64,000 nucleotides of DNA from Rickettsiales bacterium (GTDB lineage: Bacteria > Pseudomonadota > Alphaproteobacteria > Rickettsiales > JABIRX01): the NCBI GenBank assembly GCA_034111325.1, contig JAWUXM010000002.1:80774-144773 (forward strand), read 5' to 3'. Within the stretch, counting starts at the first letter, position 1, and every line of letters begins with the position of its first letter. Shown piece after piece: positions 27,211-31,803 of this stretch. Below the pieces are notes generated by a model. It was not told the DNA's origin and searched no databases. It saw only the letters and a program-made list of their open reading frames with translations. The translations under genes and the position numbers were made by a program.

Positions 27211-27218
27211 TTATAAAA

Positions 27219-27234
27219 TGTTTCACGTGAAACA
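27219..27234. promoter_or_regulatory. parS: parS site, perfect TGTTTCACGTGAAACA
   Basis: Exact consensus palindrome, 9 nt after the HAD hydrolase stop. The flanking sequence is related to the parS modules at 28402 and 28706. Confidence 0.8.
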
Positions 27235-27433
27235 TTGACGAGATCATGCGGAAACCGCAGACCCTTCATTTTTTAGAGCTTGTTTTTAACCTACAATGTC
27301 TAGCAAGCCACAAAACTGGCTCGCCCTCCCTCAATTGACTTTTACTACTTCTCCATTTTGCCTTTGCAAAAAACATTTAATAGTGCGTTAATGGATATAA
27401 AAGTAATATAACCAACCGAAAAACTGTAATATC

Positions 27434-28393
27434 ATGAGTAAAATCGAGATTTATACTAATAAAAACAATGAGGCTTCAATTGAAGTCCAGTTTGAAAACG
27501 AAACTGTTTGGCTTACACAAAGTCAGATAAGTGACCTTTTTGGAAGAGACAGAACTGTAATTTCAAGGCATTTAAATAATGTATTTAAAGAAGGTGAGCT
27601 TGAGAAAAAAAGCAATATGCAAAAAATGCATATTGCAAATTCTGACAAGCCCGTCGAGCTTTATAACCTTGATGTGATTATCTCAGTTGGCTATCGAGTC
27701 AAATCAAAACAAGGCACGCAATTTAGAATTTGGGCGACTAATCGCTTAAAAGAATATTTAGTTCAAGGCTATTCCATCAACGAAGAGAGGCTCAACCAAT
27801 TACAAAAAACCATTAAACTTATTGGTAAAAATATTGATGTAGAGAATGTTGATTTGGGGGAAGCAAAGGGTATGCTTAATATAATCAAAAACTACAATGA
27901 GAGCTTTGTTTTGCTTAATCAATTTGATAGCAATAGCTTAGAAACAAAGCATCTTAATAGAAACATCACTTACGCAATAAAGCATGATGAAGCTTTGCTA
28001 GCAATAACCGAACTCAAAAACCAACTCATTAAGAAAAAAGAAGCAACCGAGTTGTTTGGTAATCGAAAAGACGATTCTTTTCAGGGCACTTTGGGTAATA
28101 TTTTACAAAGTTTCGGCGGAGAATATCTATATCCCTCAATTGAAGAACAGGCGGCAAATTTGCTTTATTTAACCATTAAAAACCACTCGTTTTCTGACGG
28201 CAATAAACGCATCGGCGCCTTTATGTTTATTTGGTTTTTAGAGAAAAACAAACACTCCTTTAAAAAAACAGGCGAGCTCAAGATAAATGATAATGCCTTG
28301 GTGGCTCTTGCTTTATTGGTTGCGAGCAGCAACCCAAGTGACAAAGATTTAATGGTAAAATTAATAATTAATTTAATCAAAGACCAAAAATAG
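27434..28393 (+). CDS. RhuM-N-terminal domain fused to Doc-type Fic domain (RhuM/Fic/DOC family protein)
   Basis: The N-terminal half, VWLTQSQISDLFGRDRTVISRHLNNVF...YNLDVIISVGYRVKSKQGTQFRIWATNRLKEYLVQGY, matches the RhuM family. The C-terminal half has the Fic/Doc core HSFSDGNKRIGAF (HxFxDGNKR, Doc-like NKR). Confidence 0.8.
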   Translation: MSKIEIYTNKNNEASIEVQFENETVWLTQSQISDLFGRDRTVISRHLNNVFKEGELEKKSNMQKMHIANSDKPVELYNLDVIISVGYRVKSKQGTQFRIWATNRLKEYLVQGYSINEERLNQLQKTIKLIGKNIDVENVDLGEAKGMLNIIKNYNESFVLLNQFDSNSLETKHLNRNITYAIKHDEALLAITELKNQLIKKKEATELFGNRKDDSFQGTLGNILQSFGGEYLYPSIEEQAANLLYLTIKNHSFSDGNKRIGAFMFIWFLEKNKHSFKKTGELKINDNALVALALLVASSNPSDKDLMVKLIINLIKDQK

Positions 28394-28401
28394 AGATGGG
28401 A

Positions 28402-28479
28402 AACCATAATGTTTCACGTGAAACATTCACAGGATCCCGCAGATAACTAAGCTTTATGGTTTTTTTGAGCGTCAAATTT
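28402..28479. repeat. parS-carrying ~78-bp direct repeat, copy A
   Basis: AACCATAATGTTTCACGTGAAACATTCACAGGATCCCGCAGATAACTAAGCTTTATGGTTTTTTTGAGCGTCAAATTT is near-identical to 28706-28782. Confidence 0.85.
28410..28425. promoter_or_regulatory. parS: parS site, perfect TGTTTCACGTGAAACA
   Basis: Exact consensus, 17 nt after the Fic/Doc gene stop. Confidence 0.8.
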
Positions 28480-28518
28480 AATAAATAGTTCTTATGGCAT
28501 CTCACACTAAAATATCGT

Positions 28519-28630
28519 CATAGCCTGAATTGCGTAGCAATTCTAAGGCTATCCAGGAGCTACAAACAATTATTGCGCCCTTTACTCCTAGACTCCCTTA
28601 GAATTCCTGCGGAATTCAGGGAGTGACGCG
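28519..28630. repeat. Two-hairpin MITE/RPE-like element, family A (inverted copy)
   Basis: Its reverse complement, CGCGTCACTCCCTGAATTCCGCAGGAATTCTAAGGGAG...ATAATTGTTTGTAGCTCCTGGATAGCCTTAGAATTGCTACGCAATTCAGGCTATG, aligns with 25675-25788. Confidence 0.75.
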
Positions 28631-28705
28631 GCAAGCAAGGGAGTAATAAATATTTTTATCCGGTAGTGTGATGGCATATATAAAACAGCCTTAACATCAT
28701 AATTG

Positions 28706-28782
28706 AACCATAATGTTTCACGTGAAACATTGACAGGATCCCGCAGATAACTAAGCTTTGTGTTTTTTTGAGCGTCAATTTT
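28706..28782. repeat. parS-carrying ~78-bp direct repeat, copy B
   Basis: AACCATAATGTTTCACGTGAAACATTGACAGGATCCCGCAGATAACTAAGCTTTGTGTTTTTTTGAGCGTCAATTT. Confidence 0.85.
28714..28729. promoter_or_regulatory. parS: parS site, perfect TGTTTCACGTGAAACA
   Basis: Exact consensus within direct-repeat copy B. Confidence 0.8.
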
Positions 28783-28804
28783 TCTATTTATCACTCCGCA
28801 GCGA

Positions 28805-29077
28805 CTATGTTTTTTCGCTGATAATCACTGAAAAACCATTTTCCTCACAACTTTTCAACAGCTCTGTAGATAGATAATCAAGTTTACGAATAGTTTCCTG
28901 ATATTTTCTGAGCCAATCTTCCGTAACAAACAATTGGAATTTCTGGAGCTTATTAGCAAAATCTTCACAGCTTTTCATAGCATAGCGCATATTATTCTGC
29001 ACTTGTGCATAGCTACTCACAATATTTTGCATCTCAATATAAACGTTGGTGGGGTTGGTAGATTTGGATTTTGTCAT
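28805..29077 (-). CDS. Hypothetical 90-aa protein (island orphan)
   Basis: Clean ORF starting MTKSKS. It looks helical and has no motif I recognise. It shares an upstream hairpin architecture with the KAP NTPase gene. Confidence 0.45.
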   Translation of the reverse strand: MTKSKSTNPTNVYIEMQNIVSSYAQVQNNMRYAMKSCEDFANKLQKFQLFVTEDWLRKYQETIRKLDYLSTELLKSCEENGFSVIISEKT

Positions 29078-29484
29078 GATGGTTACCTATAAAAGTTACT
29101 AAGCTTTAAAACGCACACATATAAGGAGCAGGTGCTAGGGCGTTAGTAAGCCGCCAAAGACAGCCGACTGCACCTTACGATACAGCCCGCCCTAGCATAA
29201 AAGCATAATCTTTGAAGGTTACTAAGCCTTAGTGGCTAGAATGGTAATCTACCACTTGAAAGTCAATGAAAAGCTTCTCTTTCTATGAATTTGCGCACTT
29301 TGCATCTTAAGGAAGCGCTGAGATGAGCTGGCTGATATTTTGTCTTCTTGGGAATTTATTTGGTTGCGAGGGTTAAAGCCTTTGTTTATAAGGATTTGAC
29401 ATAGTAGTTGCGGCACATCAAAATCTTTTTTAGAGAAAAATTAGAATAGCACCAATTATTACTAAACCCGCAATGGTCATAATA

Positions 29485-30924
29485 TTAATCAAAGAAATTT
29501 AGACACATATCAACCTTTTTTGATATACTGTCCATAAAACTACCACTGCCATTATAACTGCCATGATGAGAACCAAGAATGCTTTGAGCCCCTCTAAGAA
29601 GATAGCTTTGCTGAGCTTGATAAGCCTGGTCTTGGGCACTAATTAGAATAAAAGGGTGAAGATATTCTATAAGAAAGTCTGTATTTGCTTGATAATTTTC
29701 TTTGGTTTTAATTATATAAAGCGTCATTTCAGCCCACCAAGAACTGCCAACTAAATTATCTTTTTTAATTAATCCATGTTTTTCAAAGAGCTGAATATAG
29801 TCTTGGTATAAAAAGCTACCTTCTCTAATTCTTTTTGCATTTTCTTCATTATCTAACAAAATCGCAATATAAAGAATCGCTGCAAGTAAAATTCCATGCA
29901 CCTTCTTTGTGCCTTGCTGTGCTGTTAGAGTATGAGATAATATTCTAAAAAACTCATCTACTTGTCTTGGAGACAAGTTAAAACAATTACAAATCTCGCA
30001 TATTTGCTCTTGTACGTACTCAATTATATTGTTTGTATAGAATCTATCTGCCCGCCCTTGTCCAAAATACTCTTCAACTTTTGACTTAATATATGACAGA
30101 ACAGCGTTCTCATCTGGCTTTGGAAGGCTAACATTCCTGTGAATGAATTTTCTGTAATATTCTGAAAAATCTAGGTCTCCATATAAGCATCTAATTGATG
30201 ATTCTAGATGCCCTTTGTCTACCCCTAAAATAAATACTACCCCTTTAGTTTGAAAGAAGTGTTTAAGGGTTTCTAGAAAATGAACTGCGTAATTTGGTCT
30301 AGACCTATCCAACTCATCAACTAGGATGAACAAAGGCTTATTTTCTAATGAAGAAATATAACTTTTTAATGACTTATTTAGCTGTTCAAACAAATTGCTC
30401 TTTTCAACATATTCTTTGAAAATTGCATTACCCATTTTTTCATCTCTATCTTTCATGTCTTTTTCAACTATTTCAGCGCATTCCTTTACATTAATCCCTG
30501 TAAATTTATTGATAACTTGATTGGTTGCAATTGCACAACTGCCAATCACCATAAAAAGAGTCTCTTTCAGGCAACTTGTTATTTCTTCATCCAACCCTTT
30601 TTTCTTGTTTAAATGGTCTATTATCTCAGAAGCGATTGTAACTACTGGTTCGTCAAAAAAGTCATTTTTCCAAGCATTGATATGAATAACATCATATTCT
30701 TGACCAACTTCTAAACGGTTCTTCATCATTTCTAAAAAACATGATTTGCCAGAACCAAACTGTCCATTTAGACTCATTACCAAGCTACCTTCAACATGAG
30801 GATATTCAGCAACTACATGTTTTATTAATTTCTCAGCAAAACTTTTTAGGTCCAATTTGTCAAAATGATCAAATGTTTTATCTAAGTTGTTTTTTGCTAA
30901 TTCTGGACCAGTCTCTTTTGTCAT
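29485..30924 (-). CDS. KAP family P-loop NTPase
   Basis: Walker A LNGQFGSGKSCFLEMM is followed by INAWKNDFFDEP. After a long insert comes Walker B FILVDELDRSRPNYAVHFLETLKHFF, then VFILGVDKGHLESSIRCLYG. This is the canonical KAP motif order. Confidence 0.85.
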   Translation of the reverse strand: MTKETGPELAKNNLDKTFDHFDKLDLKSFAEKLIKHVVAEYPHVEGSLVMSLNGQFGSGKSCFLEMMKNRLEVGQEYDVIHINAWKNDFFDEPVVTIASEIIDHLNKKKGLDEEITSCLKETLFMVIGSCAIATNQVINKFTGINVKECAEIVEKDMKDRDEKMGNAIFKEYVEKSNLFEQLNKSLKSYISSLENKPLFILVDELDRSRPNYAVHFLETLKHFFQTKGVVFILGVDKGHLESSIRCLYGDLDFSEYYRKFIHRNVSLPKPDENAVLSYIKSKVEEYFGQGRADRFYTNNIIEYVQEQICEICNCFNLSPRQVDEFFRILSHTLTAQQGTKKVHGILLAAILYIAILLDNEENAKRIREGSFLYQDYIQLFEKHGLIKKDNLVGSSWWAEMTLYIIKTKENYQANTDFLIEYLHPFILISAQDQAYQAQQSYLLRGAQSILGSHHGSYNGSGSFMDSISKKVDMCLNFFD

Positions 30925-31242
30925 TATTTATCTAAATAAAAATTCATTTCACGTAAAAAAGGTGTCAGGGTGTTTGTAGATCGTACATAGTCGACCCTGA
31001 AAGCGTTACCACAATCAGCACCCTGACATAATAGGCCACTATCGCTTCCTAAGAAACGCTATGTACGTGCTACAAAACACAAACGAAGTATTAATCTCTG
31101 GTTAGGCAGGTGTCAATATAGGATGCGTAAGCTTTGCGATAATTAAAAAAATATAATCGCACGAACGATATTTTGCGGCAACAGTGCGGCAATGAGTTTT
31201 TATGTGGGGCTGAGGCAAAAGCCAAGAAGCCTTGGTTTTATG

Positions 31243-31319
31243 TGGTTGCGGGGGCAGGATTTGAACCTACGGCCTTCAGGTTATGAGCCTGACGAGCTAC
31301 CAGACTGCTCCACCCCGCG
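31243..31319 (-). tRNA. Initiator tRNA-fMet (anticodon CAT), CCA encoded
   Basis: The reverse complement reads CGCGGGGTGGAGCAGTCTGGTAGCTCGTCAGGCTCATAACCTGAAGGCCGTAGGTTCAAATCCTGCCCCCGCAACCA. It is 77 nt and near-identical to E. coli tRNA-fMet. It has the C1:A72 mismatch hallmark. The anticodon stem is UCAGG/CCUGA, giving two rather than three G:C pairs next to the loop. Confidence 0.95.
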
Positions 31320-31803
31320 CTAATGACTTAGATTGTTTATGCGTTTTGCACATTGGAATCTAAGGAGAGCGCATTTTGTGGGTTTTCGGCTAAGAGTCAA
31401 GGTTTTATACTAGGCAGCCTGCTCTTATGTGCTGGATATTGTAAATTAATTCGTGACACTCGCACAGTATGGACCCCTGCCTGCGCAGGGATGACGGCTT
31501 GGACGTTATTTTGCGCAAACGTCAGCCTAATAACGACATTCATCTTTAAATGCACATTTCTTGTAGGCATAAAAGCTAGGGGTTTTTGTCACAATCCTAC
31601 GGATAGAAGTAAAATTAGCGATATAGCTTCGTGCAATTTCTCGCCAATAGCTTTGGCTATTAGCTTTACGATTCTACGTGGCTACTCAGCATCTAATTTT
31701 ACATAACTGCAAATGCGTATTTAAAGATGAATGTCGGTATAAGATAAGATATTGCATTAGCAGGAAACCCCTACTATAACTGAAAAAATCACTGAATTTA
31801 TAC

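Follow-up and report, generated by a model that had tools for sequence, protein, structure and literature searches.

Two structured leader RNAs resembling sRNA-Xcc1 and C4 precede island genes in a Rickettsiales genome

In the 64,000-nt stretch of a Rickettsiales bacterium genome analyzed here (contig JAWUXM010000002.1, positions 80,774 to 144,773; hereafter the window), two related elements lie upstream of two minus-strand island genes, one encoding a KAP-family P-loop NTPase and the other an orphan protein of 90 amino acids. Each element folds on the gene strand as a three-way-junction RNA that is joined by two long-range pairings to a 5' domain preceded by a promoter-like site. On balance we favor the view that the two elements belong, as divergent members, to the sRNA-Xcc1/C4 class of leader antisense RNAs, and that they constitute self-contained expression-control cassettes. 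Such a cassette probably throttles whichever island gene follows it.

Three-way-junction RNAs on the gene strand

An earlier note on this DNA had described an outer stem at each element, and both stems are present: TGCTAGGGCG (29133-29142) pairs with CGCCCTAGCA (29188-29197) in copy 1, and TGTCAGGGTG (30963-30972) pairs with CACCCTGACA (31019-31028) in copy 2. The claim that three of the ten stem pairs are changed between the copies with compensation on both arms also holds. Thus, left-arm positions 3, 4, and 9 differ between copy 1 and copy 2 (C/T, T/C, and C/T, respectively), and their right-arm partners (positions 8, 7, and 2) preserve pairing as C-G/T-A, T-A/C-G, and C-G/T-A. Of the flanking sequences said to be conserved, GGTG, GTT(A/T)GTA, and CATAA are common to both copies, whereas the CAG placed before the right arm is out of register (CAGCC-CGCCC versus CAG-CACCC). 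The motif GGTGYYAGGGYGTTWGTA occurs at two sites in 64 kb, both at these stems, when 0.18 are expected. A minus-strand open reading frame (ORF) does follow each element, with a gap from stem to ATG of 55 nt for copy 1 and 38 nt for copy 2.

RNA folding of both copies identifies each stem as helix P1 of a minus-strand three-way-junction RNA, so that the supposed loop of about 45 nt in fact contains two further helices, P2 and P3, only the outer stem having been recognized before. The common fold has a 10-bp P1, a P2 helix with a GUAA cap, a P3 helix with a CU.UG loop, and an unpaired UAC(U/A)AA segment (J3/1), followed by CACC. The two RNAs and the genes behind them are as follows.

29133-29197, minus strand: junction RNA of copy 1, with P1 (29188-29197 paired with 29133-29142), P2 (29166-29187, GUAA loop), P3 (29149-29165, loop 29155-29159), and J3/1 (29143-29149)
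30963-31028, minus strand: junction RNA of copy 2, with P1 (31019-31028 paired with 30963-30972), P2 (30997-31018, GUAA loop), P3 (30979-30996, loop b' 30984-30990), and J3/1 (a', 30973-30979)
28805-29077, minus strand: 90-amino-acid ORF behind copy 1, with one homologue at 94% identity
29485-30924, minus strand: KAP-family P-loop NTPase gene of 479 amino acids behind copy 2 (Pfam KAP_NTPase, 4.9e-37; PADLOC PDC-S20, 2.1e-70)

Fold z-scores are -3.17 (copy 1) and -3.0 (copy 2) on the minus strand; the plus-strand values are -0.5, no better than for shuffled sequence, and -2.6, respectively. Moreover, many of the conserved pairs in the P helices are G-U, which places the structure on the transcribed strand. 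P1 is followed by ACC(A/U), like the acceptor end of a tRNA, a likeness that is suggestive only as regards a 5' end made by RNase P.

The covariance model from the two copies that the earlier note had proposed was built, and it recovered further homologues, among them two members near KAP homologues in alphaproteobacterial metagenome-assembled genomes, neither of which precedes the KAP gene. Relatives were also found with a degenerate pattern that left P2 and most of P3 unconstrained; it matched one viral and at least 80 metagenomic loci, and 73 of the 80 among the listed metagenomic loci fit the model end to end. Across P1, P2, and P3 in 65 distinct sequences, 97.7% of cells are paired compared with 35-57% when the partners are slid, and double-sided changes are seen at 17 of 25 pairs, including all of those in P2, most in P3, and 4 of 10 in P1. 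RNAalifold recovers the helices from a structure-blind MAFFT alignment of 44 extended sequences, and a subfamily model (R2) built on the window copies and their metagenomic relatives scores copy 1 at 55.4 bits and copy 2 at 55 bits. Covariation in this large family therefore bears out the suggestion of a selected structure, on the strand of the genes.

The wider leader and its relatives

The elements also reach some 50-90 nt further upstream than had been described, and this additional part takes part in the two long-range pairings. Each unit consists, in order, of a sigma-70-like promoter, a 5' hairpin (B), a linker, the junction RNA, a U-run (copy 2) or a repeated target hairpin (copy 1), and the start codon, in agreement with the earlier placing of both elements in the 5' leaders of their ORFs, each downstream of its own promoter-like site. 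In both copies two exposed segments of the junction RNA are complementary to two upstream sites, as in C4: J3/1 (a') to the loop of hairpin B (a1), and the P3 loop (b') to the linker (b1). Sites of the same two types between the RNA and the start codon are termed a2 and b2. The features of copy 2 are:

31111-31116, minus strand: -35-like hexamer TTGACA (promoter consensus scan and sequence), with TTGAYN at the equivalent site in most relatives
31088-31093, minus strand: -10-like hexamer TAATAC, 17 nt past the -35 hexamer (promoter scan), with a predicted transcript start near 31081
31067-31080, minus strand: hairpin B, GUG-UUUUGUAG-CAC, the loop of which (a1) pairs with J3/1 CUACAAA
31059-31065, minus strand: linker b1, UACAUAG, pairing with the P3 loop CUAUGUA (perfect complement of 8 nt; duplex z = -3.85)
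31043-31058, minus strand: extra small hairpin CGUUUC-UUAG-GAAGCG, found by inspection between b1 and the junction RNA
30955-30962, minus strand: CC+U6, a terminator-like tail directly 3' of P1 and also the junction with the KAP cassette

The corresponding features of copy 1 are:

29261-29266, minus strand: -35-like hexamer TTGACT, found by inspection and unlisted by the consensus scan
29238-29243, minus strand: tentative, weak -10-like hexamer CATTCT, 17 nt past the -35 hexamer (3 of 6 positions match)
29215-29230, minus strand: hairpin B, AAGG-CUUAGUAA-CCUU, the loop of which (a1) pairs with J3/1 UUACUAA (7-nt perfect complement; direct repeat D11)
29210-29214, minus strand: linker b1, CAAAG, pairing with the P3 loop CUUUG (6 nt counting the neighboring base)
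29092-29107, minus strand: a2 hairpin, AAAG-CUUAGUAA-CUUU, between the RNA and the start codon, with an 8-nt loop identical to a1 (direct repeat D11)
29087-29091, minus strand: b2 position, UAUAG, abutting the Shine-Dalgarno sequence AGG; an imperfect partner of the P3 loop, not above chance

An alignment-free test gives perfect complements in the 5' domain of 6 nt for the P3 loop and 7 nt for J3/1 of copy 1, and of 8 nt and 7 nt for those of copy 2, the longest for J3/1 of copy 2 being UUUGUAG with CUACAAA. The tail of the KAP copy had been called attenuator-like, and CC+U6 does stand directly 3' of the stem; copy 2 resembles an intrinsic terminator, with a 10-bp P1 followed by CC+U6, and copy 1 is without a U-run. 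The terminator-like part of copy 2 is unlisted by the scan tool because its "loop" is the entire junction. For comparison, the Rfam consensus for sRNA-Xcc1 (RF02221) ends in aCCCuuuu.

Both pairings recur across the family. On the structure-blind alignment of 44 relatives, the loop of hairpin B and J3/1 are paired at 93.8%, with swaps of UA/AU, AU/GC, and GC/UA, and the pairing between linker and P3 loop shows variation at 7 of 7 pairs. The perfect complement of the P3 loop averages 6.9 nt in its own 5' domain versus 4.1 nt in those of other members, and is at least 6 nt long in 46 of 50 members; for J3/1 the values, again obtained free of any alignment, are 6.8 nt and 4.4 nt. The layout of the 5' domain is likewise shared, with hairpin B (8-nt loop), a 7-nt linker, and another hairpin or pseudoknot preceding the junction RNA; at the site of the extra hairpin of copy 2, relatives have a hairpin, a pseudoknot, or a terminator. 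A promoter-like site is kept before the RNA (-35 TTGAYN, 17-nt spacer, -10 TAAYRT), a hairpin with a T-rich tail stands directly 3' of P1 in 41 of 44 metagenomic members, and most members have, 35-50 nt past the RNA and always on the same strand, the start of an ORF that is preceded by a Shine-Dalgarno sequence. The products of these ORFs are unrelated, and include lipoproteins, small membrane proteins, zinc-ribbon proteins, and HNH, GmrSD_N, DUF4268, DUF2726, and PDC-S11 proteins; the flanking genes are typical of defense islands and prophages. About 70 members (L082-L161) have a doubly pseudoknotted leader of approximately 200-230 nt that scores 29-41.5 bits with RF02221. The P2 helix of the metagenomic members carries a conserved internal loop (UAUGUCCAA / CUAAAG), and both window copies are without it. 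A blastn search with a 236-nt family member against plasmids and phages gave no match.

The Rfam search proposed in the earlier note led to sRNA-Xcc1. A permissive scan of 2.9 kb (28380-31250) matched RF02221, for which the gathering cut-off is 53 bits, to copy 2 at 34.2 bits (30956-31027, E 0.0017) and to copy 1 at 26.0 bits (29126-29196, E 0.15), and both matches span model positions 1-87 of 87. All 20 of the relatives tested also match RF02221 at full length, with sub-threshold scores of 29-41.5 bits. In the reciprocal comparison, R2 matches E. coli sRNA-Xcc1 RNAs (69-80 bits with RF02221) at 17-31 bits, with E values of 3e-6 to 0.017. In addition, both window copies have the full-length junction of RF02221, in which P1 closes P2 and P3 and is accompanied by a 6-nt J3/1 and an ACC tail.

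The sRNA-Xcc1 copies of E. coli prophages (69-80 bits) stand about 40 nt before ORF6N, BRO-N, Ant, and AntA/B genes, and their modules have the promoter, hairpin B, and the linker pairings as in the window family. They also have a second hairpin past P1 that carries the hairpin-B loop, and a copy of the linker (b2) that abuts the Shine-Dalgarno sequence. The three b segments (b1/P3 loop/b2) co-vary between modules, as CAAGUAG/CUACUUG/CAAGUAG, GCAAAG/CUUUGC/GCAAAG, GCGAUAG/CUAUCGC/GCGAUAG, and UCAGUAG/CUACUGA/UCAGUAG, and a1, J3/1, and a2 co-vary as well (CUCAAAA versus CUGAACA).

A closer relative provides a second case. The single homologue (94%) of the 90-amino-acid ORF lies on a metagenomic contig (L182) with genes for a DEAD helicase, a T5orf172 protein, and an MmeI-type enzyme, and is preceded by an RNA near-identical to window copy 2 rather than to copy 1 (92 bits). 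Between this RNA and the ATG are an a2 site, UUUUGUAA, which matches the RNA type of that locus, and a b2 site, UACAUAG, which is a perfect 7-bp partner of the locus's own P3 loop and touches the Shine-Dalgarno sequence. Copy 1 of the window has a leader and start region like those of L182, but its a2 is CUUAGUAA, matching its own J3/1. The a-type target site tracks the RNA type across the swap between the window and L182, and the b-site fits its RNA type only in L182. Similarity between copy 2 and L182 stops right past CACC+U5, where the KAP cassette begins. From these observations it follows that reshuffling of cassettes and cargo genes has taken place. Taken over all of these loci, both a2 and b2 are present at the ribosome-binding site in the E. 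coli modules and L182, copy 1 has an exact-repeat a2 and an imperfect b2, and copy 2 is at chance level.

A candidate antisense cassette and competing explanations

From this arrangement we infer that the cassettes are transcribed and processed, that the RNA acts in trans, and that the sign of regulation is repression. Transcription from the cassette's own promoter would yield mostly a short RNA, terminated past P1 or processed. Within the primary transcript, the upstream sites a1 and b1 would hold the junction RNA closed and self-paired, and segments a' and b' of the junction RNA might, in transcripts that read through, base-pair with a2 and b2 at the start of translation and so prevent it. 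The gene behind the cassette would therefore be kept at a low, autoregulated level. Given that the KAP leader of copy 2 lacks cognate a2 and b2 sites, only the route through P1 and the U6 terminator would be available to it.

Several observations weigh against placing the elements in the sRNA-Xcc1/C4 class with this mode of action. Both copies score below the 53-bit cut-off, the Rfam scan of the whole window at the gathering threshold gave no match, and RF01695 (C4) has no match in 28380-31250 at E values up to 10. The start, termination, and processing of transcripts in the window are predictions from sequence, and the -10 hexamer of copy 1 is weak. The a2 site of copy 1 rests on an exact 8-nt repeat with a duplex energy z of -1.25, its b2 site is imperfect, and a search of the copy 2 leader for a2 and b2 sites by duplex energy found none above chance (z ~0). 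Similarly, tests of the loops of the metagenomic subfamily against their start regions revealed no complementarity of the a2/b2 kind. The downstream genes, a KAP NTPase and an orphan 90-amino-acid ORF, are not antirepressors, and the four closest KAP homologue loci are without the RNA.

The missing a2 and b2 sites of the metagenomic subfamily imply that masking of translation is not general and that the output there must be a terminator or something else; together with the terminator past P1, they make a purely attenuator-type or ligand-sensing mode possible. The corresponding alternative for the window, which we regard as unlikely, is an attenuator that senses a ligand or factor in the manner of a riboswitch, the state of an aptamer deciding the fate of the terminator past P1 with no antisense step. 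The large, doubly knotted fold with its highly conserved unpaired nucleotides would suit such a device, as would the hairpin and T-rich tail found past P1 in 41 of 44 members, which shares bases with the 3' arm of P1, and the CC+U6 that follows P1 in copy 2. The terminator stem barely competes with P1, however, the overlap being 4-5 nt, and the downstream genes share no function that would point to a ligand. Moreover, the loop-matched target sites at the ribosome-binding sites of the E. coli modules and L182 are unpredicted by an aptamer, and in both window copies a plain GUAA hairpin takes the place of P2, whose internal loop is the most highly conserved among the relatives.

The published view of sRNA-Xcc1, in which a stand-alone, trans-acting small RNA (sRNA) of the Hfq type has distant targets and the neighboring ORF is incidental, seems to us quite improbable for these elements. 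It draws on the accumulation of sRNA-Xcc1 as a discrete 88-nt RNA (PMC2996969) and on published target predictions (PMC12189769), and copy 2 does end in a stem and U-run like Hfq-dependent sRNAs. Nevertheless, most of about 60 loci have an ORF with a Shine-Dalgarno sequence 35-50 nt further on, which leaves no room for a separate promoter, and the exposed loops pair and covary with sites of the same transcript. The P3-loop sequence, in addition, differs in nearly every member, so that no conserved trans target is possible.

The order of RNA, terminator, and gene also resembles that of ToxIN, and several of the downstream products are nucleases or defense candidates (HNH, GmrSD_N, PDC-S11, and PDC-S20), which might suggest that the RNA binds the downstream protein as a type III antitoxin or as a cofactor. 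We consider this highly improbable: the same fold precedes unrelated lipoproteins, small membrane proteins, and zinc-ribbon proteins, tandem RNA repeats are absent, and one RNA type serves the KAP gene in the window and the 90-amino-acid gene in L182.

The earlier note had raised a cruciform recognized by a protein or recombinase; such a DNA-level function, whether as a cruciform or as a folded single-strand recombinase site of the attC kind marking cassette boundaries, is largely refuted, its remaining probability being very small. In its favor, sRNA-Xcc1 is found inside integron cassettes (10.1101/2025.06.18.660453), the exchange of cargo falls precisely at the element's end, and the modules are flanked by att-like repeats derived from the tRNA. 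The fold is strand-specific, however: many conserved G-U pairs would become A-C mismatches on the other strand, and the plus-strand fold of copy 1 (z = -0.5) does not surpass shuffled sequence. A promoter upstream and a Shine-Dalgarno sequence downstream are always in the orientation of the gene, and no integrase lies within 5 kb. An integron attC site was rejected specifically, since RYYYAAC/GTTRRRY core sites are absent from paired register and the sole AAC/GTT is in the unpaired J3/1, where it has no partner. The dispersed MITE family without a link to these genes that the earlier note had mentioned, or a REP-type repeat of that sort, for which other repeat families nearby in the window (family D1) might be cited, has a negligible chance of being correct, given just two copies in 64 kb by either model and one per related locus, no terminal inverted repeats or target duplications, and relatives that all share the orientation of the next ORF at a near-fixed offset. 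Two further candidates were set aside: a tRNA-like cloverleaf for the 5' domain was dropped since the 8-nt loop of hairpin B pairs within the RNA, and for a self-cleaving ribozyme no known core motif is present, although no dedicated test was made.

Returning to the leader antisense cassette, the RF02221 cut-off misses a large subfamily that stands before diverse cargo in defense islands and prophages, and standard annotation would consequently leave these leaders blank. In the sequences examined, an Rfam family filed as a Xanthomonas "virulence sRNA" shares with C4 the logic of upstream site, RNA, and downstream site. Between the window and L182, moreover, cassettes have been swapped between genes at a precise junction, the a-type site changing with the RNA type, and this comparison offers a directly testable model in which horizontally acquired genes, among them a candidate defense NTPase, carry a brake on their own expression. 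A broader proposal, which we put forward as doubtful, is that sRNA-Xcc1, C4, and the uncatalogued, doubly pseudoknotted subfamily of about 200-230 nt form one superfamily of portable promoter/antisense RNA/target cassettes, with which mobile elements would hold newly acquired and potentially harmful cargo silent and self-limiting. If this were true, the silenced cargo would include the PDC-S20 KAP NTPase, nucleases, SymE toxins, and exclusion lipoproteins, and the exchangeable a and b "address" loops would prevent cross-talk between cassettes in one cell. Many "single-gene" defense systems would then have an unrecognized RNA partner akin to a type I antitoxin, and loss of that partner during phage takeover would release the effector.

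Island surroundings and comparison with known systems

A link specific to KAP was rejected, since among 80 genome loci with KAP homologues the RNA is present in two and in neither lies ahead of the KAP gene; with unrelated products behind it in other loci and the closest KAP homologues without it, the RNA is a portable leader and not a partner of KAP. An exact-match query with the KAP protein of the window returned no contig record, and domain searches with the 90-amino-acid ORF gave no family match. The list of window ORFs has no phage genes near the two elements, and no integrase is found within 5 kb. Two tRNA-related features lie beside them.

31243-31319, minus strand: tRNA-Met, with its 3' end facing the island
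29355-29372, minus strand: degenerate copy of the tRNA-Met 3' end (att-like repeat, D3), between the KAP gene and copy 1; a copy also precedes the RNA in L182

The degenerate tRNA-Met 3' end is followed by AAATTCCCAAGAAGACAA both in the window (29355-29372) and in L182 (3930-3985), and these copies look like remnants of att sites left by stepwise accretion of the island. Both ORFs start with ATGACAAAA (29075-29083 and 30922-30930). As the start region of the 90-amino-acid gene, including GGUAACCAUCAUGAC, is conserved in L182, it is part of the leader-gene junction for that gene, and its match to the start of the KAP gene may be coincidence.

Other repeats were noted in the vicinity. A 64-nt family has copies at 27211-27274, 28402-28465, and 28706-28769 of the window and at about 4500-4565 of L182; it contains a perfect 20-nt palindrome, AATGTTTCACGTGAAACATT, and a plus-strand outer stem, AACCATAA/TTATGGTT, followed by a T-run, and its minus strand reads GCUUAGUUA, resembling the hairpin-B loop. 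This repeat may be a terminator, a REP-like element, or debris of the 5' domain of the RNA. Between two copies of the palindrome repeat, at 28516-28628, is an inverted repeat with 44-nt arms (77% complementary) and a 25-nt spacer, for which Rfam gave a chance-level miRNA match alone. A second inverted repeat of 33 nt (31527-31559 and 31711-31743; 88% complementary, 151 nt apart) is located just past the tRNA and overlaps a doubtful 117-amino-acid ORF. A RhuM-Fic/Doc gene (27434-28393, plus strand; PADLOC PDC-S23, 5.6e-129) adjoins the island, and in another locus (L178, 574-1083) a RhuM-domain gene stands beside a 55%-identical KAP homologue; such RhuM-KAP neighborhoods may be a recurrent arrangement.

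Of the known systems, sRNA-Xcc1 (RF02221), first seen in Xanthomonas campestris and present also in E. coli prophages, APSE phages, and Xylella, resembles the window elements in its 9-10-bp P1 (G..GGG.G / C.CCC..C), its CU.UG loop in P3, J3/1, and ACC(+U) tail, in the pairings of the 5' hairpin loop with J3/1 and of the linker with the P3 loop, and in lying about 40 nt ahead of an ORF on the same strand. It was defined as an 88-nt transcript by Northern blot and RACE in strain Xcc 8004 (PMC2996969), and has been reported upstream of symE in integron cassettes (10.1101/2025.06.18.660453) and of an ORF6N gene in APSE phage (10.1101/2020.03.17.996009). It differs in having, in place of the plain 9-bp GUAA hairpin of the window P2, a longer arm with a conserved internal loop, and in a J3/1 of UUUGAG instead of UAC(U/A)AAC. 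The window copies, furthermore, have no leader terminator between b1 and the junction RNA, and precede a KAP NTPase gene and an orphan ORF, not symE or ORF6N/Ant genes.

C4 of phages P1 and P7 (RF01695 and RF03163; clan CL00128) is processed by RNase P, and its Rfam model is also a three-way junction, which shares its landmarks with the RNAs described here: AUGG precedes P1, GGGG/CCC lies on the inside, and the 3' arm is preceded by AAC and followed by CCACC; the Rfam family for the C4 "a1, b1 targets" comprises two hairpins upstream and overlaps isrK. As in C4, each window RNA is sense-oriented within the leader of the gene that it would control, and two exposed segments pair with two upstream sites of the same transcript. 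C4 itself pairs around the ribosome-binding site and thereby blocks ant translation (PMC12197685); in the E. coli modules and L182 both segments have further partners at the corresponding position before the next gene, and in copy 1 the a2 repeat is exact and b2 is an imperfect partner. The differences are a P1 of 10 bp rather than 17, a linear b1 instead of one in a hairpin loop, and genes that are not antirepressors in a phage immunity region; true C4 RNAs, in addition, score 8.5 bits with R2. In Rfam the sRNA-Xcc1 and C4 families belong to no common clan, and our literature search found no paper linking sRNA-Xcc1 to the logic of C4.

SymR/SymE, a type I toxin-antitoxin pair, is similar in that a small RNA blocks a neighboring, potentially harmful gene at its ribosome-binding site, and sRNA-Xcc1 replaces SymR before symE in Xanthomonas cassettes (10.1101/2025.06.18.660453). 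Unlike SymR, which is encoded antisense, the RNA of the window elements lies upstream on the same strand.

The IsrK leader (RF01394) of Salmonella Gifsy-1, finally, is promoter-proximal and has a hairpin region that pairs over a long range downstream, as do the window elements; for IsrK this pairing with downstream RNA is experimental and switches translation, and a short terminated RNA and a read-through mRNA both exist (PMC4825925). The short RNA of Gifsy-1 IsrK activates translation, and the window copies differ from IsrK in having neither a terminator in the 5' domain nor an isrK match. In E. coli, isrK and c4-a1b1 overlap just before C4, which is the position of the 5' domain in the window. 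In two E. coli prophages (L175, 147-564; L172, 1963-3069) a unit of isrK/c4-a1b1 and C4 is arranged in tandem with an sRNA-Xcc1 unit on a single strand, each preceding a Rha/ORF6N-type gene, and in L175 the 5' domain of sRNA-Xcc1 follows C4 without a matching promoter. In these prophages two related antisense systems thus appear to be stacked one behind the other.

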